Origin: a plasmid
Reading direction: 5' to 3' (one strand)
Length of the DNA: 64,000 nucleotides
Assembly (NCBI RefSeq): GCF_054482595.1
Contig: NZ_JBTHVH010000001.1
Part shown: positions 20,218 to 36,582 of the stretch, piece by piece
Layout of the letters: each line of letters begins with the position of its first letter
How positions within the stretch are numbered: the stretch's first letter is position 1
Position numbers and translations under genes: made by a program
Notes under the pieces: generated by a model
What the model was told of the DNA's origin: nothing
Databases searched by the model: none
The model's input: the letters and a program-made list of their open reading frames with translations, nothing else

Positions 20218-20234
20218 TTTGCTCTAATAAATTG
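20218..20234 (+). promoter_or_regulatory. C1 operator (15/17) just after pacB stop, upstream of module A
   Basis: TTTGCTCTAATAAATTG. Confidence 0.55.
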
Positions 20235-20363
20235 TGTTTTTTAACTACCGATGTTACATTGAACCTGACCTCTTGCGCCTTGAGGCATTTTCGGTTTATG
20301 CTTATCAGGCACCTCAGTAAAACGGGTGCCGGGATTGGCCTCCCGCTTAAGTCTAAGGCGATA

Positions 20364-20387
20364 CAGACGCCGCTCGCGTCTTTTTTT
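20364..20387 (+). terminator. hairpin AGACGC-CGCTC-GCGTCT followed by T8
   Basis: Read directly; lies between an upstream target-like copy (GTCTAAGG, 20350-20357) and the c4-like RNA. Confidence 0.4.
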
Positions 20388-20417
20388 TGTATCGGCGTAC
20401 ACGCACACCTCTACAAT

Positions 20418-20497
20418 GGTGGGCTGTATGGGGCTACCTTCGGGTAGGCTGGTTACCTTGGACGCCAGTAAGGCCAACTCCGTACAGTCCACCGCCA
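20418..20497 (+). ncRNA. c4: c4-like structured antisense RNA (module A)
   Basis: 11-bp terminal stem GGTGGGCTGTA/TACAGTCCACC, internal hairpin with TTCG loop, 3' GCCA; single-stranded CCTTGGACG (20456-20464) complementary to CGTCTAAGG (20534-20542) on the downstream SD. Confidence 0.5.
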
Positions 20498-20553
20498 GCA
20501 AGATTGGTCTCTTCTGCGGTGGTTACATACCAACGTCTAAGGAGGCTGCCAAT

Positions 20554-20775
20554 ATGGCTACTATCCCTACCCCAACTCATCCTGAATTTATCTGGCGCTT
20601 TTACTCCTGCCAAAAACGTCACTATCACTTCGTTATTGCACCGACAGAAGATGAGGCACGTTCTCAGCTTCCTGACGCCCCATGTATTTTCTCTGCCCGT
20701 TTTTCCACTGATTCACGCAATTCTCTCAGTTACTGGTGCCTCCCTGTTAACGCTTCTGCTCAGGAGGGACTATGA
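20554..20775 (+). CDS. icd: icd-like small protein (73 aa), coupled to ant
   Basis: ATG with AAGGAGG SD; stop overlaps ant start (ATGA); track ORF 20326..20775 is an extension across the RNA. Confidence 0.55.
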   Translation: MATIPTPTHPEFIWRFYSCQKRHYHFVIAPTEDEARSQLPDAPCIFSARFSTDSRNSLSYWCLPVNASAQEGL

Positions 20776-21890
20776 GAACATCGTTAGTTACCCGTGAAGA
20801 GATGATCGAGGCAATTGAACAGCACACTGCCTGTATCAGTACCAGGGATATACCAGGCGTTATTGCCAACTACTTCATGATCACCAAACAACTTTACCGG
20901 AGAAAGGACAAGAACGCGGTTCACCGTATCCTGTTGTCTGATATCCGCGAATACCTGCTCGAACAGGGTCATCTGAATTACGCAACCGTCGCAGCCGAAT
21001 CACGCAAGGAGGCACACAGAATGAAAGCAACTAACGTTAAATCAGAAAAAATTCATGCACCTTCAGTTCAGGAATCGGAGCTGGTGGTTGTTCAGAATCA
21101 GTCTGATGAAATTCCCGTTCTGGAATGGCAGGGAGTGCGTGTAGTGACAACCGAGACTCTTGCTAGAGGGTATGGGACAGAAACAATCCGTATTCGCCAA
21201 AATCATCATGAGAACAAAGTACGCTTTGTTGAAGGGAAGCACTTTTTCAAAGTTGAAGGAGAATCATTGCGCGAGTTGAAGCACAGAGTAGCTTTAAACT
21301 ACTCTGTAAAAATTGCTCGCAATGTTCGCTCACTCACCCTCTGGACAGAACGCGGCGCAGCCCGCCACGCTAAAATGCTCGAAACCGATCAGGCATGGGC
21401 ATTCTTTGAAAAACTGGAAGACAGCTACTTCCGACAAAAAGAACAGCAACCGATCGCAATCCCCCAAACATTACCAGAAGCCCTACGCCTGGCTGCCGAA
21501 CTGGCTGAACAAAAGCAGCTTCTGGAACAGAAAGCCCACCAGCTAAATCAGCAGCTGGTGGCCGCCGCTCCTAAGGTCGATTTTGCCGACCGGGTATCAG
21601 TAGCTAAAGGGATCCTGATTGGGAATTTTGCAAAGGTTGTTGGACTTAAGCAAAACGCGCTGTTTGTCTGGTTACGGGAGAACGGCATCCTGATAGCGTC
21701 CGGTGGACGTAAAAATGTGCCGTTCCAGCAGTACATCAACGCGGGGTATTTCACGGTGAAAGAAGTGGTGCTGGATGATGAAGATGGCTACCAGATACGG
21801 TTGACGCCTCAATTAACGGGTAAAGGCCAGCAGTGGTTGACGCGTAAACTGCTCGATGCTGGCTTGTTAAAACCGGTGGCGGCTGAATAA
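20772..21890 (+). CDS. ant1: antirepressor Ant1 (372 aa) with in-frame internal start for Ant2 at Met84; C-terminal KilAC/ANT domain
   Basis: Size matches remembered 42/32 kDa Ant1/Ant2; AntA-like middle domain; conserved C-terminal block shared with 25550..26602. Confidence 0.7.
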   Translation: MRTSLVTREEMIEAIEQHTACISTRDIPGVIANYFMITKQLYRRKDKNAVHRILLSDIREYLLEQGHLNYATVAAESRKEAHRMKATNVKSEKIHAPSVQESELVVVQNQSDEIPVLEWQGVRVVTTETLARGYGTETIRIRQNHHENKVRFVEGKHFFKVEGESLRELKHRVALNYSVKIARNVRSLTLWTERGAARHAKMLETDQAWAFFEKLEDSYFRQKEQQPIAIPQTLPEALRLAAELAEQKQLLEQKAHQLNQQLVAAAPKVDFADRVSVAKGILIGNFAKVVGLKQNALFVWLRENGILIASGGRKNVPFQQYINAGYFTVKEVVLDDEDGYQIRLTPQLTGKGQQWLTRKLLDAGLLKPVAAE

Positions 21891-23476: not shown

Positions 23477-23510
23477 TAACTTCGTATAGCATACATTATA
23501 CGAAGTTATA
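23477..23510 (+). other. loxP: loxP recombination site
   Basis: Exact ATAACTTCGTATAGCATACATTATACGAAGTTAT. Confidence 0.97.
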
Positions 23511-23698
23511 TTAAGGGTTATTGAATATGATCAATTTACCTGTAAATCCATACAGTTCAATACTGTAGCAGGTCAAATAGTGACCACTTGATCATTTGAT
23601 CAAGGTTGCGCTACGTAAAATCTGTGAAAAATTGGCGGTGTTAGTCCTACAGATTTCGCGTAGCGCACTTAGCACCACCAATCAATCAGAGGTGAAAA

Positions 23699-23920
23699 AT
23701 GGGATATTCAACTGCTAAAGTGTCCACTCATCTTGAGCTTGAGAAAAACCGTGGTTACTGGCGGGCAAAAGGGTTTGATCGTGATAGTTGCCAACTGTCA
23801 TTATCGCGCGGTGAAGAGAAAATAGAACGCACGCGCGGTCGCTGGCGTTTCTATGACGAGAACCATAAACAGGTAAAGGCAGAGCCGATCCTGTACACTT
23901 TACTTAAAACCATTATCTGA
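23699..23920 (+). CDS. small ORF (73 aa) between loxP and cre
   Basis: ATG with GAGGTG SD; identity unknown. Confidence 0.35.
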   Translation: MGYSTAKVSTHLELEKNRGYWRAKGFDRDSCQLSLSRGEEKIERTRGRWRFYDENHKQVKAEPILYTLLKTII

Positions 23921-23927
23921 GTGTTAA

Positions 23928-24959
23928 ATGTCCAATTTACTGACCGTACACCAAAATTTGCCTGCATTACCGGTCGATGCAACGAGTGATGAGGTTCGCA
24001 AGAACCTGATGGACATGTTCAGGGATCGCCAGGCGTTTTCTGAGCATACCTGGAAAATGCTTCTGTCCGTTTGCCGGTCGTGGGCGGCATGGTGCAAGTT
24101 GAATAACCGGAAATGGTTTCCCGCAGAACCTGAAGATGTTCGCGATTATCTTCTATATCTTCAGGCGCGCGGTCTGGCAGTAAAAACTATCCAGCAACAT
24201 TTGGGCCAGCTAAACATGCTTCATCGTCGGTCCGGGCTGCCACGACCAAGTGACAGCAATGCTGTTTCACTGGTTATGCGGCGGATCCGAAAAGAAAACG
24301 TTGATGCCGGTGAACGTGCAAAACAGGCTCTAGCGTTCGAACGCACTGATTTCGACCAGGTTCGTTCACTCATGGAAAATAGCGATCGCTGCCAGGATAT
24401 ACGTAATCTGGCATTTCTGGGGATTGCTTATAACACCCTGTTACGTATAGCCGAAATTGCCAGGATCAGGGTTAAAGATATCTCACGTACTGACGGTGGG
24501 AGAATGTTAATCCATATTGGCAGAACGAAAACGCTGGTTAGCACCGCAGGTGTAGAGAAGGCACTTAGCCTGGGGGTAACTAAACTAGTCGAGCGATGGA
24601 TTTCTGTCTCTGGTGTGGCTGATGATCCGAATAACTACTTGTTTTGCCGTGTCAGAAAAAATGGCGTAGCTGCGCCATCTGCCACCAGCCAGCTATCAAC
24701 TCGCGCCCTGGAAGGGATTTTTGAAGCAACTCATCGATTGATTTACGGCGCTAAGGATGACTCTGGTCAGAGATACCTGGCCTGGTCTGGACACAGTGCC
24801 CGTGTCGGAGCCGCGCGAGATATGGCCCGCGCCGGAGTTTCAATACCGGAGATCATGCAAGCTGGTGGCTGGACCAACGTAAATATTGTCATGAACTATA
24901 TCCGTAACCTGGATAGTGAAACAGGGGCAATGGTGCGCCTGCTGGAAGATGGCGATTAG
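23928..24959 (+). CDS. cre: Cre site-specific tyrosine recombinase
   Basis: 343 aa; matches the well-known Cre sequence (MSNLLTVHQNLPALPVDATSDEVRKNLMDMF...MVRLLEDGD). Confidence 0.97.
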   Translation: MSNLLTVHQNLPALPVDATSDEVRKNLMDMFRDRQAFSEHTWKMLLSVCRSWAAWCKLNNRKWFPAEPEDVRDYLLYLQARGLAVKTIQQHLGQLNMLHRRSGLPRPSDSNAVSLVMRRIRKENVDAGERAKQALAFERTDFDQVRSLMENSDRCQDIRNLAFLGIAYNTLLRIAEIARIRVKDISRTDGGRMLIHIGRTKTLVSTAGVEKALSLGVTKLVERWISVSGVADDPNNYLFCRVRKNGVAAPSATSQLSTRALEGIFEATHRLIYGAKDDSGQRYLAWSGHSARVGAARDMARAGVSIPEIMQAGGWTNVNIVMNYIRNLDSETGAMVRLLEDGD

Positions 24960-24976
24960 CCATTAACGCGTAAATG

Positions 24977-24993
24977 ATTGCTCTAATTCTTTG
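24977..24993 (+). promoter_or_regulatory. weak C1 operator-like half site (core ATTGCTCTAAT)
   Basis: 13/17. Confidence 0.3.
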
Positions 24994-25009
24994 ATATTTA
25001 TGGCGACAT

Positions 25010-25321
25010 ATGAGAAAGAATTTCAACATCGACGGAAAATATGTAGTGCTGTCAGTGAGCACTAATATTCAGTCGCCAGCCGTCATTGTCACTGTAAAGC
25101 TGAGCGATAGAATGCCTGATATTGACTCAATATCCGTTGCGTTCCCTGTCAGAAGTATGCGTAGTGCTGAACATTTCGTGATGAATGCCACCGAGGAAGA
25201 AGCACGGCGCGGTTTTGCTAAAGTGATGTCTGAGTTTGGCGAATTTTTGGGGCACGTTGACAAAGCCCTCTCAATCAGTTCAGCAAGATCCAAAGCATTA
25301 ACAGCTTCCATGATGAAATAA
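25010..25321 (+). CDS. hypothetical protein (103 aa) downstream of cre
   Basis: Track ORF ending just before a hairpin; weak SD. Confidence 0.35.
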   Translation: MRKNFNIDGKYVVLSVSTNIQSPAVIVTVKLSDRMPDIDSISVAFPVRSMRSAEHFVMNATEEEARRGFAKVMSEFGEFLGHVDKALSISSARSKALTASMMK

Positions 25322-25326
25322 AAAAA

Positions 25327-25345
25327 GCCTGGCAAGGAGCCAGGC
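25327..25345 (-). terminator. hairpin GCCTGGC-AAGGA-GCCAGGC followed by a U-run on the minus strand; terminator for module B
   Basis: Read directly; A7 precedes it on the plus strand. Confidence 0.45.
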
Positions 25346-25549
25346 TGCACAAAAGAGCGGGTTTGTATTCCGCATCCAATCAATCAAGAAGGAGTATAGC
25401 ACACAGGTACTGACGTGAAAAAATATGATTCGCGATAAACAAAATACCTATCATTGCTCTAATTGAGCCGCAGTTTTTGTCAACTACGAAGACGTGGCCA
25501 TTACCTACTCCTTTGAAATCATTGGCGACCATTAGGCCGCCTTTTTTAA

Positions 25550-26602
25550 TCATTCAGCCGCCACCGGTTTTAACAAGCCAGCATCAAGTAGCTTGCGAGT
25601 CAACCACTGCTGGCCTTTACCCGTTAATTGGGGCGTCAGCCGTATCTGGTAGCCATTTTCATCATCCAGCACCACTTCTTTCACCGTGAAATACCCGGCG
25701 TTGATGTACTGTTGGCGCGGTACGTTTTTGCGCGCACCAAAAGCCATGAGAATGCCGTTCTGGCGCAACCATGAGAAAAGGGCGTTTTGCTTCAGTCCAA
25801 CGACCTTTGCAAAGTTCCCGATCAGGATTCCATTAGCCACTGATACCCGAACGGCAAAATCGACTTTAGGGGCTGCGGCCACCAGCTGCTGATTTAGCTG
25901 GTGGGCTTTCTGTTCCAGAAGTTGCTTTTGTTCAGCCAGCTCGGCAGCCAGGCGCAGAGCTTCGGGGAGTGTTTGGGGGAGCACTGGAGAAGCAGTGTTA
26001 GCCTGCTGCAATTCCTCCAGTTTGTCGATCAGCGAACGGCGGACCGCTTTTGACTCGCGCGCGGCAACTCGCAGGGCTTGTTTGTAGGTCATGGAGATAG
26101 TTTCAGATGTTGTGTTGTTTAATTTTTGCACTACGAAAATTTCGTAGTACTCACCATCCAGTTCATCCTTAACTCTGGCAATAAAATCATTATTGCGAAC
26201 TGGTTTTTCGCTGCATAATTTCCGCGCTTCATTGACCATCTTCAACAATGTTTGGCTGTCTATTGTGTCGCCGCTGTTGGGGATAACATTCACGGCTGGT
26301 GCAGTTGTTCCCAAAGACTTCGTAACTACAGCGTCTGGTTTGCTTGCTTTCATTCTGTGTGCCTCCTTGCGTGTTTCGGCTGCGACGGTTGCGTAATTCA
26401 GATGCCCCTGTTCGAGCAGGTATTCACGGATATCGGTTAGCAGAATGCGGTGAACCGCGTGTTTGTCCTTTCTCCGGTAAAGTTGTTTGGTGATCATGAA
26501 GTAGTTGGCAATAACGCCTGGTATATCCCTGGTACTGATACAGGCAGTGTGCTGTTCAATTGCCTCGATCATCTCTTCACGGGTGACTAATGACGTTCTC
26601 AT
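25550..26602 (-). CDS. antirepressor-like protein, paralog of Ant1 with a different central domain (350 aa)
   Basis: First about 85 aa and last about 150 aa near-identical to 20772..21890; middle unrelated. Confidence 0.65.
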   Translation of the reverse strand: MRTSLVTREEMIEAIEQHTACISTRDIPGVIANYFMITKQLYRRKDKHAVHRILLTDIREYLLEQGHLNYATVAAETRKEAHRMKASKPDAVVTKSLGTTAPAVNVIPNSGDTIDSQTLLKMVNEARKLCSEKPVRNNDFIARVKDELDGEYYEIFVVQKLNNTTSETISMTYKQALRVAARESKAVRRSLIDKLEELQQANTASPVLPQTLPEALRLAAELAEQKQLLEQKAHQLNQQLVAAAPKVDFAVRVSVANGILIGNFAKVVGLKQNALFSWLRQNGILMAFGARKNVPRQQYINAGYFTVKEVVLDDENGYQIRLTPQLTGKGQQWLTRKLLDAGLLKPVAAE

Positions 26603-26820
26603 AGTCCCTCCTGAGCAGAAGCGTTAACAGGGAGGCACCAGTAACTGAGAGAATTGCGCAAATCGGTAGAAAAGCGGGCAGAGAAAATACAGGGAGCATC
26701 CGGAAGCTGAGAACGTGCCTCATCTTCTGTTGGTGCGATAACGAAGTGATAGTGACGTTTCTGGCAGGAGTAAAAGCGCCAGATAAATTCAGGGCGTGCG
26801 CAAGGATTGGCATTAACCAT
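26599..26820 (-). CDS. icd-like small protein (73 aa), paralog of 20554..20775
   Basis: PEFIWRFYSCQKRHYHFVIAPTEDEARSQLPDAPCIFSARFSTD block shared; ATGA overlap with downstream gene. Confidence 0.55.
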   Translation of the reverse strand: MVNANPCARPEFIWRFYSCQKRHYHFVIAPTEDEARSQLPDAPCIFSARFSTDLRNSLSYWCLPVNASAQEGL

Positions 26821-26867
26821 AGTTACGGCCTCATGTACAGGTTTAACAACCTGCTATCCGCTGCTAA

Positions 26868-26947
26868 ACGGGTGGCAGGACGTGACGGGGTTAGCAGACT
26901 GGCGTACATGAAACCAGCAGGCCGAAGCCTCCCCATCACGCCCCACC
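26868..26947 (-). ncRNA. c4-like structured antisense RNA (module B), diverged from module A
   Basis: Aligns to the module A RNA with compensatory stem changes; recognition TCATGTAC complementary to GTACATGA on the icd-B SD (plus 26831-26838). Confidence 0.45.
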
Positions 26948-27121
26948 ATAATTCGGGCGTAACGTGGTTTTACGGACACAAAAATACCGCAATATCGGAT
27001 ATCTGCGGTTGTCCGCATGTACATTCAGGCTGCTAAACCCGGTCGCAGAATTTGCTACGACGGCGGAACTATAAGCCTGAATGACAGGAAGATCAATAGT
27101 CTGGCGTTCAATGGTAGTATT

Positions 27122-27154
27122 TTTGCTCCAATAAATCAAATCTATTAGAGCAAT
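27122..27154. promoter_or_regulatory. pair of C1 operator-like sites in tail-to-tail arrangement (13/17 and 16/17) between module B and the MBL gene
   Basis: TTTGCTCCAATAAATCA and reverse complement ATTGCTCTAATAGATTT. Confidence 0.55.
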
Positions 27155-27296
27155 AAATTATTATCCCAAGCTTTACAGTGCGCTGTAAAATTCAAACCTT
27201 CGGGTCAGTGGCGGAATCGTATTTCACTCACGGAATGAGTATTATTAGTTTTGTCATACATAGCTAGGTAATGAATCACTTGAAGGAACTACGAAC

Positions 27297-28097
27297 ATGT
27301 CCGTGACCATTAGCGTCCTGCTGGAAAACAGACTTAAGCTTGGAGTTAAAAACTCGCTGCGTGCTAAAGCAGGACTTAGTCTGTTGATACAGGATGAAAA
27401 CGATTCAATCCTGTTTGATACTGGGCCTGATGATAGCTTCATGTATAACGCAGGTTTAATGGGGGTCGATTTGACAAAACTGACCGCAGTTGTACTTTCC
27501 CATGGTCACTATGACCACTGCGGAGGTGTTCCGTGGATACCAGACACATGCAGGATAATATGCCATCCTATGGTGTCGGATGAGCGCTATTCGGCAATCA
27601 GGTTTTTAGGCTATACCGCCAGAATAAAAAAATTATCATTACATAATGATTTTTCACGTTTCCGCATGGAATACAGCAACACACCATTGCATATCAGTGA
27701 GCGTTTTATGTGGTCAGGAGAGATCCCTGTTGCCAGGCCACGCGCTTACGGTGTTATCGGGTGTAAGAATACGAAAGAAGATTACGTAAAAGATGAGGGG
27801 GTTTTAATTTATAAATCAGACTATGGGTTGATCATTTTTATCGGTTGTGGTCATTGCGGGGTAATTGATATTGTGCGCCACTGCCAAAATATAACCGGGA
27901 TAAATCATATTCATGCAATTTTTGGTGGTCTTCATCTGCGCTGTGCGTCCCCTCTTATGCTCTGGAAGGTGAGACAGTTCTTACGCCTTCATAAACCAGA
28001 TAAGATAATGGGGTGTCATTGTACTGGCAAATGGGGACGCTTGTGGTTACCGGAATCAACCTCTCCGGCAACAGGTGATGTTTATGTTCTTGGATAG
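27297..28097 (+). CDS. MBL-fold metallo-hydrolase
   Basis: HGHYDHCGG (HxHxDH), GCGHCG, GGLHL motifs in order; AAGGAA SD; AT-rich by eye. Confidence 0.65.
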   Translation: MSVTISVLLENRLKLGVKNSLRAKAGLSLLIQDENDSILFDTGPDDSFMYNAGLMGVDLTKLTAVVLSHGHYDHCGGVPWIPDTCRIICHPMVSDERYSAIRFLGYTARIKKLSLHNDFSRFRMEYSNTPLHISERFMWSGEIPVARPRAYGVIGCKNTKEDYVKDEGVLIYKSDYGLIIFIGCGHCGVIDIVRHCQNITGINHIHAIFGGLHLRCASPLMLWKVRQFLRLHKPDKIMGCHCTGKWGRLWLPESTSPATGDVYVLG

Positions 28098-28104
28098 ACA
28101 TGGT

Positions 28105-28221
28105 GCTGTTTCTGTTCATGTCGATTGTGTGGTTGGGGGCAAGAAAGAATTCACCTTGCTGAATAAGTCAGAGATGGAGTTGCTGGCTGACGCCTATGAG
28201 ATGGCAAACGTCATGCACTAA
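28105..28221 (+). pseudogene. ref: possible 3' remnant of ref (no start codon; C-terminal peptide GGKKEFTLLNKSEMELLADAYEMANVMH)
   Basis: Open frame from 28009 with no ATG; tail resembles remembered P1 Ref C-terminus; needs alignment. Confidence 0.35.
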
Positions 28222-28228
28222 TAAATAT
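28212..28228 (+). promoter_or_regulatory. C1 operator-like site (ATGCACTAATAAATATA)
   Basis: 12/17 to consensus, same variant type as the site at 22869. Confidence 0.35.
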
Positions 28229-28414
28229 ATTATTTTTAATGATAAATGATTGACAACTGACAAGTGACTTCAGCCAGAATCATCACACGCCCGGTACGGA
28301 TGGATCCCTTTTCAAATATTCCATGGACGGCACAGTCTGAGTACCGGGCGCTACCTTCAGTTGTATGTATTGCTAAGCCGCCGCTGGTGGCTTTTCTTTT
28401 TTGTAGGGGGCGCT

Positions 28415-29056
28415 ATGGATAAGAAAATATGCGTTGTTTCGATGAGCGTCGGCAAACCGGCGTCAATGACTGCTGCATGGATCAATAACGAGCTGATAAT
28501 GGCTGAGCGGACCAGCTACCCTGAACGCCGCCGCGATATGGAACTCCAGCTGCTGCGCGAATTGCGAGAAAAAGAGGAAAAGGGGTTTATCGTGCTGGTG
28601 GAAGAGGAAAACAGCTTTATTACTGGTCGAGTTGGCCAGCGTGTAAGGTTGCGCGATCCCTTCATGAACGGCAGGCCGGTACTAATTGAGGCAATGCAGA
28701 TTTATAAGGAGTTGGAACGCCAGAAAGCAATCAAGTTACCGCGCAAGGAATCCGGCAAATACATCCTCCACCAAAGCATCTTCGATTCCGAACACGATAA
28801 AAAAGGCGATGAATTTTTCAACATCAACTGGAGCGAAATAACGACAGAGCATGTTCTGACGTTACTATGTTGCTTTGCGACGGAATACAACAACGTTGCC
28901 AGCGCCGACTACATCAGGGCAATGGCTGGAGAAGTTGAGGCACGCCAGGAACCATCGTTACTAAGCCCTCTGATTAACATAATTCGCAGAACCCAAACAC
29001 TGGCGCAAAAACAAGTACCACAAGGGGAATTGACGGGTAAAGGTAATTATCTCTGA
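28415..29056 (+). CDS. hypothetical protein (213 aa from MDKK)
   Basis: ATG at 28415 with GGGGG SD; track ORF starts at TTG 28361; position corresponds to P1 mat (unverified). Confidence 0.4.
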   Translation: MDKKICVVSMSVGKPASMTAAWINNELIMAERTSYPERRRDMELQLLRELREKEEKGFIVLVEEENSFITGRVGQRVRLRDPFMNGRPVLIEAMQIYKELERQKAIKLPRKESGKYILHQSIFDSEHDKKGDEFFNINWSEITTEHVLTLLCCFATEYNNVASADYIRAMAGEVEARQEPSLLSPLINIIRRTQTLAQKQVPQGELTGKGNYL

Positions 29057-29095
29057 AAGATGCCCGGCGATAGACCGGGCAAAAGGGCGGAAAGT

Positions 29096-29344
29096 TTAAT
29101 CAGCATTCAGGAGCAATGCGTTATCTATGATGATCTGCTCCCATTCTTCGAATGCCCGATCGCGGACGCCCTGGGGAACACTGTTAGTTTTGAAATCGAC
29201 GACCGTACGCCATTTCCCGTCCGGACGGTACATGCGCAGAGCTTTACTTCCCCCTTCCCTGCGCACCTCAACGTTATGCTTGTCAGCAAACTCTTGTAAT
29301 GCTCGTAACGTCCCATGCTTTACTGTGTAGTATCGCTTTTTCAA
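29096..29344 (-). CDS. lxc: Lxc/Bof-like C1 co-repressor (82 aa)
   Basis: Size and position downstream of ulx-darB as in P1. Confidence 0.45.
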   Translation of the reverse strand: MKKRYYTVKHGTLRALQEFADKHNVEVRREGGSKALRMYRPDGKWRTVVDFKTNSVPQGVRDRAFEEWEQIIIDNALLLNAD

Positions 29345-29781
29345 GTTTTCTCTCCAGCCTGTGCCAAGGCTTCAACTTCCAAATCATAAGACTCAAACTC
29401 ATAGTCCTGGTCGTCAACTTCTTCAGGCACTGGCAGTAAATGCCAGGCTGAGTATATCTGACCATTATCAAAACGCTCCTGGCTGTAGAGCGTAGCGGCT
29501 ATGAGTGTTAGCGCCGGGCGGTCATAACGGTAAATTTTGCGAACGTCACGGTCAACGAGACGACCGAAATTACCATAACCGCGCTCCAGTAATAATTTTT
29601 TAATTTCCGGCCAGTATGGACCATAGCTGCGGTACAGGCGGGGATTTTTCAGTAATCGCCCGCGTAGCCCTGACAGGAAGAAATCAACGTATTCGTCTTC
29701 TGTCTTTCCTAACAACGCCGTACGCAGTACCGCCTCAAGATATGTTTTATTCGGTTTTATTGTATCAGATAGTGTGGCCAT
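29341..29781 (-). CDS. ulx: Ulx (146 aa)
   Basis: Immediately downstream of darB, overlapping stops. Confidence 0.5.
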   Translation of the reverse strand: MATLSDTIKPNKTYLEAVLRTALLGKTEDEYVDFFLSGLRGRLLKNPRLYRSYGPYWPEIKKLLLERGYGNFGRLVDRDVRKIYRYDRPALTLIAATLYSQERFDNGQIYSAWHLLPVPEEVDDQDYEFESYDLEVEALAQAGEKT

Positions 29782-29814
29782 ATTATGCGACGCCCGGCGA
29801 ACCGGGCGCTCCTG

Positions 29815-32800
29815 TTATGCGTATTGTTGGATGACGGCCAGAACGTCCGCCACGTTGTGTTTTGTCTCGATAATCCACCAGTTACCCGGGAAATCGCTGT
29901 TCTTTGCCTTCGCTGGCAGCCAGCGAGCGCCGAATTTCGCCTTGATTGCGTCTTTCGCACGGAAAAGAATGCCTTTCATGCCGGACGCCTCCTGAAGCCC
30001 AAATACCTCGCCAGCGGCGAATTTTGGTGCGTACATCATCTTCAGGTCGGCGGTGGATACGCGATAATTCAGACCAAGAGACTGAGCTATGCTGGTGGCA
30101 TCACCCTGTATTGATGATAACTCTTCTTGTTTCTCGTTTCTGGCGGCAATTTCTTCCTCCGTGATGTTGCCAAGGGCCAGGTTTATCCGATCAGCGTCGG
30201 CCTGTTTCTCTTCATCGGTGCGCCCGGCAAGAACCGTGTTAATTCTCTGCAATATCTCCACATGATTCTTGCGCATGCTGAGCAATTCCGGCGTAACCTC
30301 GTTAAGATCCACCAGCCCAAGGATGGCAAGGTCGGAAAACATTGATACCAGGTTGTAGGTCATGCGATAGCTGAGTTGGCCATAGGCTGATGGCAACTGC
30401 ACCGCATCCATTTTATAGGCATCCATAAATTTAGAGCCGTCGTTTACGACATCCGCAATTGCCGGTGTGATTTTCCCTGTGGTGGCGGCCTCCCTGATTG
30501 CTGTTACCCACGATTGAGTCAGTGCGGCGACTGCATGATTCAGATTGGCTTCCCGTTCTGCTGCGATGCGCGCGCTTGCTGCGTCCATTGCCTGCTTGAT
30601 CTCGGCTTTATTGCTGTAAATGCCAATGGTGCCAAACTGTGCTGTGGTGATCTCATAATCTGACGCCCGGAACTCATGGGTACCGAAAATGGCATTGGTG
30701 ACCTCAAGTTCAGAATCCCCGTTACGAGTAGCCCCCTGGCTTGTTTTCTCCGGCATTCTGGCGATCGCATCCGCTATTTTCTCCTGAATTGCTTCAGGGG
30801 ATAGCGTATCTCCATATGACGCGATTACATCGCCATAATTGGAGCCAAACAGTTCAGTCAGGAATACTTCTGCCAAACGGACCTGGCGGTTATTCCCTTC
30901 AGACATCATACCAAGCACCCATTTTGCAATTGACGACTTCAGCGCGCCGTCACGGCGATCCGGGTAAACCGCATGCTTCAGTGGGTCCGTATAGGTACCA
31001 ACAAAATCAATGCTATAGCCTGACTCTGTAGTCTGAACGCCGTATGAGTCAGTGATTTTGATCATGCCGCGCTGCTGGAAACGGTAGAAATCGTCACAGG
31101 AAATGATGTCGTTAATCCCGGCGATGGAGACGCCACCACTGATTTTCTGCATAACAGCATCTTCATCGGGAGTTACATCCACCTGTTTATCCAGCGTCTT
31201 CACATCCCAGTTACCCGATTTGGTGCCTCTTAAGGTAAAGATGATCTCCACGTCTGCGCGCTGGCTGTCGAAGTCCAGCGACTTAATGCGAACGATATCA
31301 CCGGCACAATCGTAGTATTGGCCTACACGCCATGAGCGATCGCCGATAACAAGGAACTCATTCGCATGGTTAACCAGATCAGGATCAACATCCAGAATGC
31401 CTTTATTTATTGCATCCTCCACCAGCGGGCGCAGGCGTTTGATATCCGTCGCGGCCTTCTGAGTACGGTTCAATAATTTCTCATAGCGGGAGATGGCCTG
31501 AGAGATATTAGCCTTGCGCTGAATGGCGCTTTTCAACGACGCGCGATACTGTGCTAACAACATACGGTCTGTGTGATGGACACTCCCCCAGCGGGCCTTC
31601 CAGTCTGCGTTATCCGCTGCCTTGGCCATTGCCGCCTGTTTGAATTTAGCTACCTCGGCGGTGGTCTTTTCAAGTTCCGCTTTGCTTCGCTCTAATTCAG
31701 CGGTAAGTACCTCCACATCCTCGCCAGCTGCGTGCTGCGCCTTGATGTAGTTCTGAAGGTCGATAGTAGCCTGTTCTTTCTGGCGAGCGCGTTTCGCAGC
31801 TTTCGCCTTATCCATTTGAACCTGCATCATTGCCAGACGTTCGCCGTCATCCTTCGCGGTATACATCTGCATTTCGATCATGTCATTGGCGTCGGCGTTC
31901 TCCATTTCTGACTTATCTGAACGGAGGATATCGGAGATCCAGCCTGCTTTACGCTTCAGCGTCTTCAGTCGGTATTCATCGAAAGACCCCTTGCCGCAGT
32001 AGTAGTGAACGCGAACGCTTGCACGGTTGGAACCAACTCGGGCACCGCGACCGTTACGCTGTGCGATACTGGCTGGTGTCCACGGCAACGTCAGGTGGTG
32101 GATATCCGTCGTTCCTCGATGCAGGTTGATACCCACCTCTGCCTTTTTGTTGCAGATGATGATCGGAGTCCGGCCCTCCTGGAAGTCGGCTGCAATCTTT
32201 TCCAGACCGCCCAACGACATTTCATTTTGCTGCGCGATATAGGCGTCATACAGAGCCATTTGCTCGTTGTATTTCGCTATCTGTGCATCTGTTGGTTCAT
32301 CCGGTAGCTCTTTCGGCGGTTTAACCGCTTTCAGTTTCTTACCGGTTTTACCTGCCTCGGCAACCGTCTGAGCATTCAGGATCCCCACCTTTGAAGGTTC
32401 AAGGTTTAGAGCATTGCAGATAATGCGCTTGAGCTTCTGGTGCTGCGTTTTTTCATCGGTGAAGATGATTTGCTTACCTTCCGGGAAAAACTCCTTCAGC
32501 GTGGCGATCAGCTTCGCGTATTTCGGCGTAACGGGGTGAGTTACGGTCTGTTCGTCAATGCCAAACCTGGCCAGGCGCTTATTCACTTCCTGCTCGAACG
32601 CTTCCGGAACCTGCAACTGAATAAACTCGCCCTTATCTATCAGGGAGTATTGCGATTGCTGCGTGATTGAATCATCACTGTCGTCGTCTTCGCTGGTGGC
32701 TTGTTTAGGCAAACTGTCCGCCAGCTGCTGCACCGCATCGGCGTACTCCGGCAGGAAACGATAGGTGATCCGGCGATAGTACAGGTCCATGTCAGTACAT

Positions 32801-35800
32801 ACGCGGTCCATATCCCTGATTATTGAGAAGATCGGACGGGCTTTCTCGTGCTCAATCACGCCATCTTCATTGACCGAGGTCGTTACGCCATTGTTGGCTT
32901 TGGCCGCCGCTTCCGCCTGCTGACGCAATTCTTCATACGCCGCCAGTTGTTCTTCAGTAAGTGGTGCATCCTGCTGGTGTTCGTCCAGCTCCGGGATCTC
33001 CACGGTATCCTTAACGTCTTCCGCCGTTTTAAGCGTTACCCAGCGATGGAATATACCGCGCAGCGCATCAAGGTTTTCAAAGCCCACCAGCGCCATTTTT
33101 TCTTCAACTTCACCGCTAATTTTCTGTACCGTTTCCAGCCTGGTCTTGCCGAAGAATTTAACGAAGTCATCAGGACCGTAGATCCCCATGTTCTGCCAGT
33201 ATTCCTTCGGCAGAACATGAGAAAGCATGTTGTATGCATCGATCGGGGTGTTAACGACTGGCGTTGCAGTCAGGAGAACCGGCCCGCGCCCGCCATTCTT
33301 TTTCATCAGGTACGCGTTTTTAATTGCCATATCTCGCGCCGATTGCGCCACCGCGCTGGTGGGCAGATAGGCCAGTTGTGACGCTTCGCGACCATTTTTA
33401 TAGCTATTGCGGTAGTTGTGACCTTCGTCAGCGATCACACTATCGAAGCCCATATCCTCAAAGTACGGATACTTCTCTGCTTTTTCGGTGCCGGTATCTG
33501 AATACTCCGACAATACCCGGCGACGCGCAGCCTCTTTGCGGTGGGAGTCGGAGTCCATTGCGCTGGCTACGCGCCCGGCGGCAACGAAGTCATAAAGCAT
33601 ATCCTGTGCATGCTCATCTACGGTGTCATCACGTAGCGGAATGCGGGCGTATTGTTCTTTGGTAAACACGACTGCACGGTAATTTGAGTGCGGGATCGCG
33701 TTCATCCGCGCCGTGATAGTGGCTTCATCTGCCAGCTTAAGAGCATCGCGCATAACGGGAGTGCCATCTGCACCAACGACAGGTTTACCGTTCTCATCGA
33801 GCACCGGCACCAGGCGAATCTGATCGCCATCCATCAGCACATCAAGACCGACGAACAGGTAGTTACTGAATGCCTCTTCACTCAGAAACTCTTTTGCTTC
33901 GTAATACCAGTTTTCCAGCACTGATTTAGGCACTACATACGCAGTACGGGTGGAACGACCGTTCTCATAGTTGAACGCCTCAAGCGCCAGCGCGGTCGTG
34001 GTTTTACCCAGCCCGGTACCGAAGCCCAGGATGCCGCGCCCATCTTCGGACAGTCGGCGCACCTCGCTATTCTGGTAATCAAATGGCTGTCGCTTACCGC
34101 TTAATCCCTTCAACCCAAGCGGATCGCCAGAGTGTTCATACGGGATATTGCTATTGAACACATCGTTGTATTTGGCAACCAGCTCATCGTAGCGATCGTG
34201 CGTCTTGATCCACGTATTGAACTGGTCCTCAAGCAGTGCCATCTGCTCGCGGTAGCCGTTCGCCGTCGCGCTATCTTTGCCACCGATACGCGCACCATTG
34301 AGATACTTTTCCAGCTGTGCCGGGAACCCGGTCGCGTTTTCACCTGATTTACGGTCCCACTCGTAGCGGATCTCGCCTGTTTCTTTATCCTTGCGCTGGA
34401 CGACACCGTATCGGTGCCCGACGAACAGACCATCACCACCGTGATAGGTGTCAGAAACCATTTCGTCGCCTTCCAGCTGCACTGACTGCACATAGCGCAG
34501 ATCCGGATAGCCGTTTTCCTGCAAAAATTCCAGAATCACGGAACGGTCGAACCAACGGCTATTGAGCTTAAACCGGATATTCTCTGCTGGCGTCTTGATG
34601 CGCTTCTCTTCGATCGCTGCCAGCTGATTAAGGACGTTGTTCTTTACTGGACCGTCGGGGAGCGTGGCGAGGAATTCCTGTTTTGGAGCCACTATCTCGT
34701 TAATGTCGCCGCTGGTGGCGCGGGCGAACGGAACAATCCCGCCATACGGTGAAACCGCAATGCCAGGGGTGCTGGCCAATAAATTAAGCAACTCGTCATC
34801 ACTGGCTGGCAGTTCGCCGGTAAACGCAAGGCGGAAATCATCGAGCTGGATTGGATCGCGGGTAAGATCGCTATAGAGATAACGCAGGGTGTCCTGATAG
34901 CTGGTGGAGTCATAACTGGCGCTGGAATCATGCGTAACCAGCTTTCCTGTCAGCTCGTCAGAAATAGTGCCATCCAGCTTAATTGCACCACGGAAAGCAA
35001 ACCAGGCGCGCGCACCGCTCCCCGATAATTTCGCTATCGGACCGCGACCGGGGTTACCAAAACGGTCAATCTCTGCCTGCAAACGGGATACCAGAGAAAG
35101 GCGCTGCTGTTCGATTTGTTCAGCACTATGCCCGGCGGCCTTCATGTCCTGATATTCAATTAACATCCGGCCAATCATCGCTCCGCGATACAAGCGTTCA
35201 CGGTATTTTTCAGGCTGGCTGTTAATCCAGTCCACCAGCTGCACCATATCGTCGCTGATTGATGTGGTGTACTTATCGCGGACATTTGCCATCTGGGTAA
35301 ATGTCATACCGAGACGGCCTTCTGTTGTAGTCAGGTTACGCTGAAGAGCCTCCCAGCTATCCGCACCATAACTGGCAACCTCAATCTTCAGCTCCTTCCC
35401 GGCATCAGCTTCAATCCAGCGACCACCAGCATATTTTTGCCATACGCCATTAATCAGGCGCATTTCCCCTTCATCAACAACATCTGCGGTCGGTGACGGT
35501 TCAGCCATATCGAGCAAAGACCAGTCGATACGACTTTCGAAACGATGAATCAGCTTCGCTTTAAGAGCCTGGTTATCAATCTGCCCGTCGGCACGAACCT
35601 CAATACGCCCCTGGAATCCCTTCTCCTGAGTGCCATGAACAAACCGGCGGCCGTCCTTTTCAAACCACTTGCCAGAAATAAACGTTGGCCAAAGCACATT
35701 TGCCGATTCAAGAGTGTCTTCATCCACCAGGGGGATTTTCTCAGCCATCTCCGCCGGATGTTTGCGCATCAGCACCACGTCAACGACCGTACTGGTCCCG

Positions 35801-36582
35801 TTTGCGTCAAAAGTACCGGTAGGCAAGCGGTGGGCACCAAGAAATTCAGCTTTCCGTGATAGGCGCAGGCGTAACCGCTTCATGTTTGAACCTGAAACAA
35901 TGGACGGCGGCACAATCACGCACATGAATCCGCCTGGCTTTATCTTGTCCAGCATGCGGAGCATGAAGTAAGAACCCATGTCCGTTTCTTCTGCGTAAGG
36001 CTTATCGATGTTGCGTGTGTTATCACGACCACCGAACGGAACGTTACCCACAACATGGTCGAATGAATCGTTAGGCGTGCTTACAGCCAGTTGTTCGAAC
36101 GGGGAAATCTGTACGCTGTCTTCCGGATGTAACAGCTGGTTTATACGACCGGAAACACTGCTGATCTCAGTCGCGGTCATCACCGTACCAACCGGTTTTG
36201 TCTCATTAAAAACGCCGGTGCCCGCCGATGGTTCCAGAGTGTTACCTACGTCCGCGCCGTAGAGCTTCATGATCTCCCAGACACCTTCAGCGATCGGCTT
36301 TGGTGTGTAATATTCGGAGACGGACCCGCCAATGCCACCTTCACCGGTGTACCCAGCCAGGATCTGGCGCTGTTCATCTGTCAGTGTCGCGCCGTCCACC
36401 AGCGAATTAAGCAAATCTATCGCCTTCTGATTCGCCTCACGGCGCAGTCGGTCATAGCTTTTGCCTTCCACCTTTTCCACGCCGTATTTAATCGGCGCTC
36501 GGTGAGATGTTATTGCCCTAATGTATTTCAATATTTCGCTGACACTTGAACAGCGAAACACCCCCATAGATAGCTTGTTCAT
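29815..36582 (-). CDS. darB: DarB antirestriction protein (N6-adenine methyltransferase plus helicase domains)
   Basis: 2255 aa; EPSAGTG and NVPF methyltransferase motifs; GTGLGKT Walker A and DEGH helicase box. Confidence 0.9.
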   Translation of the reverse strand: MNKLSMGVFRCSSVSEILKYIRAITSHRAPIKYGVEKVEGKSYDRLRREANQKAIDLLNSLVDGATLTDEQRQILAGYTGEGGIGGSVSEYYTPKPIAEGVWEIMKLYGADVGNTLEPSAGTGVFNETKPVGTVMTATEISSVSGRINQLLHPEDSVQISPFEQLAVSTPNDSFDHVVGNVPFGGRDNTRNIDKPYAEETDMGSYFMLRMLDKIKPGGFMCVIVPPSIVSGSNMKRLRLRLSRKAEFLGAHRLPTGTFDANGTSTVVDVVLMRKHPAEMAEKIPLVDEDTLESANVLWPTFISGKWFEKDGRRFVHGTQEKGFQGRIEVRADGQIDNQALKAKLIHRFESRIDWSLLDMAEPSPTADVVDEGEMRLINGVWQKYAGGRWIEADAGKELKIEVASYGADSWEALQRNLTTTEGRLGMTFTQMANVRDKYTTSISDDMVQLVDWINSQPEKYRERLYRGAMIGRMLIEYQDMKAAGHSAEQIEQQRLSLVSRLQAEIDRFGNPGRGPIAKLSGSGARAWFAFRGAIKLDGTISDELTGKLVTHDSSASYDSTSYQDTLRYLYSDLTRDPIQLDDFRLAFTGELPASDDELLNLLASTPGIAVSPYGGIVPFARATSGDINEIVAPKQEFLATLPDGPVKNNVLNQLAAIEEKRIKTPAENIRFKLNSRWFDRSVILEFLQENGYPDLRYVQSVQLEGDEMVSDTYHGGDGLFVGHRYGVVQRKDKETGEIRYEWDRKSGENATGFPAQLEKYLNGARIGGKDSATANGYREQMALLEDQFNTWIKTHDRYDELVAKYNDVFNSNIPYEHSGDPLGLKGLSGKRQPFDYQNSEVRRLSEDGRGILGFGTGLGKTTTALALEAFNYENGRSTRTAYVVPKSVLENWYYEAKEFLSEEAFSNYLFVGLDVLMDGDQIRLVPVLDENGKPVVGADGTPVMRDALKLADEATITARMNAIPHSNYRAVVFTKEQYARIPLRDDTVDEHAQDMLYDFVAAGRVASAMDSDSHRKEAARRRVLSEYSDTGTEKAEKYPYFEDMGFDSVIADEGHNYRNSYKNGREASQLAYLPTSAVAQSARDMAIKNAYLMKKNGGRGPVLLTATPVVNTPIDAYNMLSHVLPKEYWQNMGIYGPDDFVKFFGKTRLETVQKISGEVEEKMALVGFENLDALRGIFHRWVTLKTAEDVKDTVEIPELDEHQQDAPLTEEQLAAYEELRQQAEAAAKANNGVTTSVNEDGVIEHEKARPIFSIIRDMDRVCTDMDLYYRRITYRFLPEYADAVQQLADSLPKQATSEDDDSDDSITQQSQYSLIDKGEFIQLQVPEAFEQEVNKRLARFGIDEQTVTHPVTPKYAKLIATLKEFFPEGKQIIFTDEKTQHQKLKRIICNALNLEPSKVGILNAQTVAEAGKTGKKLKAVKPPKELPDEPTDAQIAKYNEQMALYDAYIAQQNEMSLGGLEKIAADFQEGRTPIIICNKKAEVGINLHRGTTDIHHLTLPWTPASIAQRNGRGARVGSNRASVRVHYYCGKGSFDEYRLKTLKRKAGWISDILRSDKSEMENADANDMIEMQMYTAKDDGERLAMMQVQMDKAKAAKRARQKEQATIDLQNYIKAQHAAGEDVEVLTAELERSKAELEKTTAEVAKFKQAAMAKAADNADWKARWGSVHHTDRMLLAQYRASLKSAIQRKANISQAISRYEKLLNRTQKAATDIKRLRPLVEDAINKGILDVDPDLVNHANEFLVIGDRSWRVGQYYDCAGDIVRIKSLDFDSQRADVEIIFTLRGTKSGNWDVKTLDKQVDVTPDEDAVMQKISGGVSIAGINDIISCDDFYRFQQRGMIKITDSYGVQTTESGYSIDFVGTYTDPLKHAVYPDRRDGALKSSIAKWVLGMMSEGNNRQVRLAEVFLTELFGSNYGDVIASYGDTLSPEAIQEKIADAIARMPEKTSQGATRNGDSELEVTNAIFGTHEFRASDYEITTAQFGTIGIYSNKAEIKQAMDAASARIAAEREANLNHAVAALTQSWVTAIREAATTGKITPAIADVVNDGSKFMDAYKMDAVQLPSAYGQLSYRMTYNLVSMFSDLAILGLVDLNEVTPELLSMRKNHVEILQRINTVLAGRTDEEKQADADRINLALGNITEEEIAARNEKQEELSSIQGDATSIAQSLGLNYRVSTADLKMMYAPKFAAGEVFGLQEASGMKGILFRAKDAIKAKFGARWLPAKAKNSDFPGNWWIIETKHNVADVLAVIQQYA

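Follow-up and report, generated by a model that had tools for sequence, protein, structure and literature searches.

Cargo exchange at two adjacent sites of a P1-like phage-plasmid: an additional immI-type cassette, an MBL-fold metallo-hydrolase gene, and an empty res/mod slot

The 64,000-nucleotide stretch of plasmid contig NZ_JBTHVH010000001.1 (RefSeq assembly GCF_054482595.1) that we analyzed, referred to here as the window, carries a P1-like phage-plasmid backbone with cre, c8, mat, lxc, ulx, and darB in collinear order. The interval between cre and lxc (24960-29060) is a known variable region of such elements, and we conclude, with a probability of about 0.7, that it has recombined at two adjacent cargo sites, to give an additional immunity cassette of a functional immI type (module B), a captured metallo-beta-lactamase (MBL)-fold phosphodiesterase gene expressed on its own, and an empty second slot. 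Site 1, at the ATTG-repeat/Oref region that separates c8 from mat, holds the leftward cassette; a rightward and intact MBL gene abuts it, captured from the enterobacterial chromosome and plasmid pool with its own upstream DNA, and this capture would have deleted the start of ref. The MBL gene would act as a lysogenic-conversion ("moron") gene and not as a member of the C1 regulon. Site 2, between mat and lxc, is the location used for EcoP1I res/mod in P1 and for other defense genes in relatives, and is reduced here to a spacer with a hairpin. The window is a rare but ordinary mosaic: both hot-spots are already published, the combination is new among the records searched, and the finding mainly documents cargo shuffling by P1-like phage-plasmids.

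Two cargo sites between cre and lxc

Comparison with phage P1 (NC_005856), using blastn breakpoints and junction alignments, resolves three collinear blocks with identities of 94.9 to 98.4%. The first (23493-25547, matching P1 1-2069 at 97.4%) includes lox, cra, cre, c8, and the ref promoter/Oref region, the second (28112-29025, P1 2528-3437, 94.9%) includes the last 110 nucleotides of ref, Omat, Pmat, and mat, and the third (29089 onward, P1 9743 onward, 98.4%) includes lxc, ulx, and darB. Two stretches lack a P1 counterpart: 25548-28111, which stands in place of P1 2070-2527 (ref codons 1-150), and 29026-29088 (∼63 bp), which replaces P1 3438-9742 (res, mod, and IS5). The P1 annotation runs c8, ref, mat, res, mod, lxc, ulx, and darB; an initial annotation, made from the letters of the window, had correctly placed ref, mat, and res/mod of P1 between cre and lxc, but had also put cra there, which lies upstream of cre. 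Relative to P1, the window shares the order cre, c8, mat, lxc, ulx, darB at 94 to 98% nucleotide identity and keeps Omat and Pmat, but retains only ref codons 150-186, lacks res, mod, and IS5, has a 13-bp deletion in Oref, and has gained a 2.56-kbp insert composed of the immI-type cassette and the MBL gene.

The initial annotation described the interval as a cargo hot-spot without an open reading frame (ORF) of res or mod size; both parts of this description hold, and all the elements that it listed are found at the coordinates given. The same flanks enclose different cargo in relatives, and the largest ORFs in 24960-29060 encode 350, 266, and 231/213 amino acids. An EcoP1I-type type III restriction-modification (RM) system is absent, with no ORF larger than 350 amino acids in 24960-29814 (P1 res spans 2.9 kbp), and the slot that separates mat from lxc, whose 3' ends converge, contains no restriction or defense cargo in the window. 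In relatives this slot contains SIR2, DUF2971, GNAT, PIN, EAL plus HTH, RelA/SpoT (CapRel), or type III RM genes, or none; the CapRel-SJ46 locus of Salmonella phage SJ46, for example, has RelA/SpoT (CapRel) in the same mat-lxc slot that is empty here. The empty arrangement is present in 31 of 693 P1-like plasmid matches in PLSDB, including pO111_2.

Both sites have been reported previously. Extra ORFs are inserted between c8 and mat in P1-like plasmids, with the ATTG cluster at P1 1,957-1,982 as an insertion hot-spot, and at a second hot-spot, RD-1 (P1 3,469-9,749, res-mod), element-specific ORFs stand in for the lost res/mod (Venturini et al. 2019, PMC6906374). Additional homologues of icd-ant, and one more ant located between pacB and c1, are also reported in that paper. 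The window uses both published sites, but its combination is not described there, and the word "hydrolase" occurs 0 times in that text. A 2025 preprint includes type III RM, CapRel, dGTPase, and PrrC among the defense cargo of P1-like elements. This MBL cargo is not mentioned in the texts searched, although its absence from the wider literature is not provable.

Close relatives are pYZMc17-1_100k (NZ_CP123256) and 11 other Escherichia coli P1-like plasmids, which share with the window, at 99 to 100% identity, its module B, its MBL gene, and its ref remnant; the window differs from this group in that its slot is empty, as in pO111_2 and NZ_CP060930. Across 28112-29400 the window shares 99.3% identity with NZ_CP060930, in which the empty slot is accompanied by an intact ref. 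No record with both the MBL gene and an empty slot is present among the matches listed from the collections searched, and we take the window, from these alignments, to be a recombinant of known modules in a combination not shown among the records listed. The mat-lxc slot was read in 9 of the 12 MBL-bearing E. coli plasmids and codes for SIR2 in five, DUF2971 in three, and type III RM in at least one (CP122494). Slot 2 thus varies independently of the MBL gene, and the MBL/ref-remnant block is fixed while the adjacent defense slot holds any of these genes or, as in the window, nothing.

An additional immI-type cassette and its operator

Module B comprises all parts of an immI-type cassette, encoded on the minus strand: a C1 operator, a1/b1 targets, a C4 antisense RNA, icd, and ant (Table 1); the initial annotation had marked a module here without recognizing it as a full cassette. 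It is in register with P1 immI (ordered Oc4, P2c4 plus P1c4, a1, b1, c4, a2, b2, icd, and ant), with P7 immI, and with module A, the other immI-type cassette in the window. Module B shares order, spacing, parts, operator position, and a/b target logic with the immI regions of P1 and P7 (Oc4/Op51, C4, icd, and ant1/2), but it is an ectopic, additional copy with a new b specificity (GTACATG) and an operator with a weak inverted partner. The a' and b' loops of its C4 RNA are at 26891-26897 and 26904-26910, respectively, with targets a1 (27030-27037), b1 (27016-27022), a2 (26861-26868), and b2 (26832-26838), and a leftward promoter-like site (TTGATC-17-TATAGT, 27096-27068) is the counterpart of P1c4/P51b.

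The b' loop of module B (CATGTAC) pairs with its own b1/b2 (GTACATG), and a' (CTGCTAA) pairs with TTTAGCAG. The corresponding b' and b1/b2 sequences are CACTAAC and GTTAGTG in P1, CACAATC and GATTGTG in P7, and CCTTGGAC and GTCTAAGG in module A; loop and targets in module B have co-varied, and its b specificity is unlike that of P1 or P7. Because a working antisense system of new specificity should show co-variation of this kind, we infer that module B is probably functional. A canonical immI of the P7 type is present as well in NZ_CP123256, a plasmid nearly identical to this one (517-2015 of the stretch examined), which brings the lineage to three cassettes. Module A is flanked by pacB and c1 and module B by c8 and the ref remnant; the third is the P7-type copy, and each has a different b' loop that matches its own b1/b2. 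This stacking suggests, from the pairing patterns, a combinatorial antisense immunity among competing P1-like elements. With two of these distinct, co-varied specificities in the window and the third in a near-identical relative, antisense-RNA immunity competition between related P1-like elements is directly testable, and the stacking is the more useful by-product of the analysis.

The operator at 27138-27154 on the minus strand (ATTGCTCTAATAGATTT) has one mismatch to the C1 operator consensus, and the window contains 12 sites with three or fewer mismatches compared with 0.29 expected by chance. The initial annotation described a divergent operator pair, and the strong site stands, but the partner at 27122-27138 on the plus strand has four mismatches and is only a weak half-site. 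In position and orientation the strong site aligns with the operators of P1 (Oc4, formerly Op51), P7 (Op(c4)), and module A; it stands ahead of the leftward c4-icd-ant transcript, and it is unchanged in module-B relatives that have no MBL gene (pO111_2-type plasmids). By these alignments it is assigned as an Oc4 homologue serving the leftward cassette. We note that every immI copy examined has cargo at the site divergent from Oc4: P1 has simABC there (P1 48108-48156 compared), P7 the lipoprotein genes upf50.5/50.0 (3064-3883 of the stretch examined), and the window the MBL gene.

At the left side of the cassette, a 13-bp loss between ATTG direct repeats of the published insertion hot-spot (P1 1962-1985) collapses Oref and takes out the P2ref -10 hexamer, and the Oref remnant has five mismatches to the C1 operator consensus. 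A hairpin (GGCGACC-ATTA-GGCCGCC, followed by TTTTTT; 25524-25547) separates the P1ref promoter region from the insertion junction, and its stem is perfect in P1. Because the foreign block begins right after the T run, any residual transcription from the ref promoters is probably terminated here before running antisense into ant.

The MBL-fold gene, its origin, and its expression

The MBL-fold gene proposed in the initial annotation is present and intact, although calling it AT-rich is a mild overstatement (GC content of 43.9% compared with 48.5% for the whole window). Its 266-residue product has an HxHxDH motif at residues 69-74 (SHGHYDH, 68-74) and keeps all 66 residues that do not vary across 31 aligned family members; the ratio of nonsynonymous to synonymous substitution (dN/dS) is 0.11 to 0.14 against diverged copies, and on this measure the family is under purifying selection. 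Profile searches against the PDB match 2p4z (E, 4e-40), TM1679/3h3e (5e-34), and 7dck (7e-25), and an AlphaFold (AF2) model, with a predicted local distance difference test (pLDDT) score of 88.6, gives Foldseek template-modeling (TM) scores of 0.84 to 2p4z, 0.81 to 3h3e, and 0.74 to 0.81 to 7dck, "phosphodiesterase tw9814." The next neighbors of the model (TM ∼0.5 to 0.57) are the phosphodiesterases PhnP, Apyc1, YhfI, and tRNase Z. The matches to 2p4z (T. tengcongensis), 3h3e, and 7dck are full length, but identity is only 18 to 25%. By profile and predicted fold the protein belongs to the 2p4z/TM1679/tw9814 subfamily (COG1237-like), and its homologues place it in an uncharacterized family of enterobacterial chromosomes. 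It is a cytoplasmic two-metal hydrolase and most likely a phosphodiesterase of a small phosphoester or nucleotide, a chemistry that we infer, and is a reasonable though low-priority candidate for enzymology.

As the initial annotation proposed, the gene is foreign cargo and not a conserved P1 gene: tblastn finds no homologue in 50,697 phage records, and BFVD contains no close viral fold for the model. We rejected the candidate assignment as a regular phage gene on these grounds, the only PHROG match being generic (E, 2.5e-4), and a component of a defense system was likewise rejected, with PADLOC returning only a nonsignificant RTasMBL match (E, 0.006). At 55 to 88% identity, homologues occur singly in unrelated chromosomal settings of Serratia, Kluyvera, and Edwardsiella, an orthologue is recorded for Salmonella LT2 (Q8ZME5), and further copies are on IncF-type plasmids of Enterobacter, Edwardsiella, Citrobacter, and Pantoea, those of Pantoea and Citrobacter being truncated. 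The family has no conserved partner gene, and the neighbors differ in every context examined. Some sources name homologues as a pterin synthase of the methanopterin pathway, which we rejected as an automated label; to our knowledge, that pathway is not found in Enterobacterales. An 82%-identical copy on the Edwardsiella tarda plasmid pET-ATCC-159-1 is in an island of RES, an HTH protein gene, VapBC, MazEF, and DUF3800 (1-9322 of the stretch examined), where the toxin-antitoxin and defense-like genes contrast with the housekeeping surroundings of the chromosomal copies.

Homology among the copies extends from ∼85 to 90 bp before the ATG to the stop codon, and the gene therefore came in as a compact unit that included its own upstream DNA; no more than about a dozen bases separate it from the middle of ref. 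It is a clean case of a transducing phage-plasmid acquiring an enterobacterial gene of chromosomal type. The distribution is narrow. In PLSDB, 830 plasmids match the interval and eight have the MBL gene; among complete E. coli genomes the region is matched in 782 of 5,426, and the gene is present in 12 (∼1.5% of P1-like-bearing genomes and ∼0.2% of all), always on P1-like plasmids of 94 to 102 kb and at 100% identity. The NCBI Prokaryotic Genome Annotation Pipeline (PGAP) labels it "MBL fold metallo-hydrolase" in these relatives, beside an incomplete Ref pseudogene.

The initial annotation suggested that the MBL gene may be under C1 control, a proposal that the evidence does not support: the operator is assigned to the leftward cassette, no promoter on the plus strand was recognized, and the gene has upstream DNA of its own. 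A consensus scan of 27100-27296 finds sigma-70-like matches in the leftward direction only, which is no proof that a plus-strand promoter is absent. Expression from the gene's own upstream region, outside the C1 regulon, is most likely. That region contains an inverted repeat (ACTCA-CGGAA-TGAGT, 27226-27240) that in Enterobacter, Citrobacter, and Edwardsiella has the form ACTCC-GGGAAT-GGAGT, and because this compensatory change keeps the stem, the repeat may serve in the native control region as an operator or as an RNA hairpin. No riboswitch or leader RNA was found upstream of the gene by Rfam matches at E ≤ 0.1. The 50-bp junction segment between the C1 operator and the native upstream region is absent from module-B plasmids without the MBL gene and is outside the part common to other MBL copies; it contains the palindrome noted in the initial annotation, confirmed as TTACAG-TGCG-CTGTAA at 27173-27188. 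A LexA box was considered for this palindrome and rejected, since the half-sites are in the wrong order.

Several observations weigh against the account given here of a captured, self-expressed phosphodiesterase. No promoter for the MBL gene is recognizable under either the self-expressed or the C1-controlled model, so that its expression is presumed, and the weak operator half-site and the 27173-27188 palindrome could have a regulatory role. The sole biochemical label in the subfamily is the PDB title of 7dck, and searches of the literature on 7DCK/tw9814 and COG1237/TM1679 returned nothing useful. The identity of all 12 E. coli copies provides no evidence of selection since capture. Lastly, no plasmid with module B and an intact ref was found among the relatives, and the order of insertion and deletion is accordingly a reconstruction.

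Among the alternatives, the least improbable is that the MBL gene took the place of ref in the C1 regulon, with a rightward promoter overlapping 27122-27154 that is silent in the lysogen and active at induction or infection. The ref gene that it replaces is C1-controlled in P1 through Oref, the strong operator is 143 bp upstream of the MBL ATG with an inverted partner that gives it a bivalent look, the divergent simA promoter of P1, 6 bp from Oc4, is a precedent for divergent cargo, and there are -10-like hexamers on the plus strand (TAAAAT, 27186-27191; TATTAT, 27159-27164). However, these hexamers have no usable -35 and no promoter-like site was scored on that strand between 27100 and 27296, the operator has the position and direction of Oc4 and is conserved in relatives without the gene, and the original Oref is 1.8 kbp away, degenerate, and facing the 3' end of ant, with an opposed cassette between it and the MBL gene, which has its ∼85 to 90 bp of native upstream DNA. 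We consider C1 control unlikely.

It is also conceivable that the MBL gene is a neutral hitch-hiker, recently captured, without function in the phage-plasmid, and kept only because the lineage is young. The 100% identity of the 12 E. coli copies indicates a recent lineage, and the low prevalence (12 of 782), the lack of a recognizable promoter, and the truncation of the Pantoea and Citrobacter copies are all consistent with this. Against it, the ORF is intact with every invariant residue kept, the family is under purifying selection, and the lineage has spread to human, pig, chicken, and wastewater sources (the records come from China and from wastewater plants labeled Stanley) with slot 2 reshuffled in at least four ways, which argues for persistence. 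We regard a functionless passenger as rather improbable.

We give still less weight to an anti-defense phosphodiesterase of the Apyc1 type, which would destroy the cyclic-nucleotide signals of Pycsar, CBASS, Thoeris, or type III CRISPR, thereby aiding establishment in new hosts. The MBL protein shares with Apyc1 the fold, an intact two-metal motif, a similar size, and carriage on mobile elements; 7u2s and 7u2r are among the nearest structures outside the family (Foldseek E, ∼1e-6), homologues carry a "faint" precomputed match to PF23023 (Anti-Pycsar_Apyc1), and the gene is beside the ulx-darB anti-restriction cluster, replacing another accessory gene of DNA metabolism. Membership was nevertheless rejected, with no significant sequence or profile match to Apyc1. 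TM scores to Apyc1 are just 0.50 to 0.55 at 10 to 11% identity, no Apyc1 chain is among the best 60 PDB profile matches (reaching E ∼0.06), and no viral structural neighbor exceeds a TM of 0.53. Nor is there a homologue among the phage genomes or a significant PADLOC match, and the family occupies chromosomal, nonmobile contexts in Serratia, Kluyvera, Edwardsiella, and Salmonella LT2. More doubtful again is the suggestion that the protein would be the founding phage-borne member of a new anti-defense phosphodiesterase family, distinct from Apyc1, that was recruited from enterobacterial chromosomes, set beside an Oc4-type operator, and degrades a nucleotide immune signal at establishment or induction.

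A class B beta-lactamase, as antibiotic resistance cargo, can be set aside as very improbable: the Pfam Lactamase_B assignment, weak N-terminal matches to B3 enzymes, and the resistance genes that P1-like plasmids are known to carry are offset by scores far below the NCBIfam cut-offs (bla_subclass_B3, 21 bits compared with 240; bla_class_B_core, 21.3 compared with 100, both covering residues 27-81 only), an N-terminus (MSVTISVLLENRLK) without a signal peptide, and structural neighbors that are cytoplasmic hydrolases, with beta-lactamases reaching TM scores of only ∼0.35 to 0.42 by Foldseek.

The ref remnant, mat, and other features

Capture removed the first 150 codons of ref and left 36 to 37, and Ref function is consequently lost, the remnant being dead. 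The remaining frame matches positions 150-186 of 186 in the Ref PHROG (E, 8e-14), and in relatives PGAP labels the corresponding sequence "Ref family ... incomplete; missing N-terminus." Full-length Ref nuclease (∼186 amino acids, including the nuclease core) is not encoded. The initial annotation had proposed a truncated ref from the resemblance of this frame to the Ref C-terminus, and the similarity to P1 Ref is clear (33 of 37 identities); the MBL protein, in turn, matches no known P1 gene. In module-B relatives without the MBL gene, there are ∼61 bp from the operator to Omat and ref is entirely gone.

Table 1. Coordinates of the cargo interval, its flanking genes, and the other immI-type cassette of the window
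Feature	Coordinates	Strand	Basis
Module A, second immI-type cassette in the window	20218-21890	+	Located between pacB and c1
cre, left anchor	23928-24959	+	343-aa ORF; inside the 97.4% match to P1 1-2069; P1 cre 436-1467
c8 (103-aa ORF)	25010-25321	+	Collinear with P1 c8 1518-1829; PHROG 1968, E 3e-52
Degenerate Oref/P2ref region	25453-25469	+	Alignment to P1 1830-2130; 13-bp deletion between ATTG repeats leaves ATTGCTCTAATTGAGCC
Replacement block	25548-28111		2,564 bp; immI-type cassette plus MBL cassette; blastn breakpoints, junction alignments
ant-like antirepressor, module B	25550-26602	-	75% identity to P1 Ant1, full length; PHROG 63 "anti-repressor Ant," E 2e-111
icd-like gene, module B	26599-26820	-	NCBIfam phage_ICD_like, 49.9 bits (cut-off 25); PHROG 1426, E 6e-45
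C4 antisense RNA, module B	26868-26953	-	Rfam RF01695, 71.7 bits (gathering score 45)
a1/b1 target region of C4	27016-27074	-	Rfam RF03163 at 27022-27074, 55.5 bits (gathering score 46.7)
Oc4-type C1 operator	27122-27154	-	Strong site 27138-27154 (-), weak inverted partner 27122-27138 (+)
Junction segment	27155-27204		50 bp; palindrome TTACAGTGCGCTGTAA (27173-27188); MBL lineage only
Native upstream region of MBL gene	27205-27296	+	Homologous to upstream DNA of Enterobacter and Citrobacter plasmid copies and Edwardsiella chromosomal copy
MBL-fold metallo-hydrolase cargo gene, 266 aa	27297-28097	+	Pfam Lactamase_B PF00753, E 3e-15
ref remnant, last 36-37 codons, pseudogene	28108-28221	+	33/37 identities to P1 Ref 150-186
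Omat operator	28212-28228	+	CATGCACTAATAAATAT, four mismatches to consensus; identical to P1 2628-2645 region
mat, 213-aa form, intact	28415-29056	+	PHROG 1837, E 5e-113, full length
Empty res/mod slot	29057-29095		39-bp intergenic; hairpin GCCCGG-CGATAGA-CCGGGC 29062-29080; P1 3438-9742 missing
lxc (bof)	29096-29344	-	98.4% match to P1 from 9743; PHROG 2160
ulx	29341-29781	-	PHROG 1629 "Ulx-like anti-restriction," E 4e-66
darB, right anchor	29815-36582	-	2255-aa ORF; collinear with P1 darB

The 103-residue ORF at the left of the interval, whose existence but not identity was given in the initial annotation, is assigned from its match and position as c8, a conserved P1 backbone gene and not cargo; a terminator-like hairpin (25326-25346) follows it. 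On the other side of the insertion, the Pmat/LPmat region follows Omat and extends to ∼28290. A 4-bp TGTA duplication at ∼28363-28370, relative to P1 and pO111_2, puts the annotated upstream mat start of P1 out of frame; it removes only that start and leaves the shorter form of mat intact. Between Pmat and the 28415 mat start there is a further terminator-like hairpin at 28375-28393.

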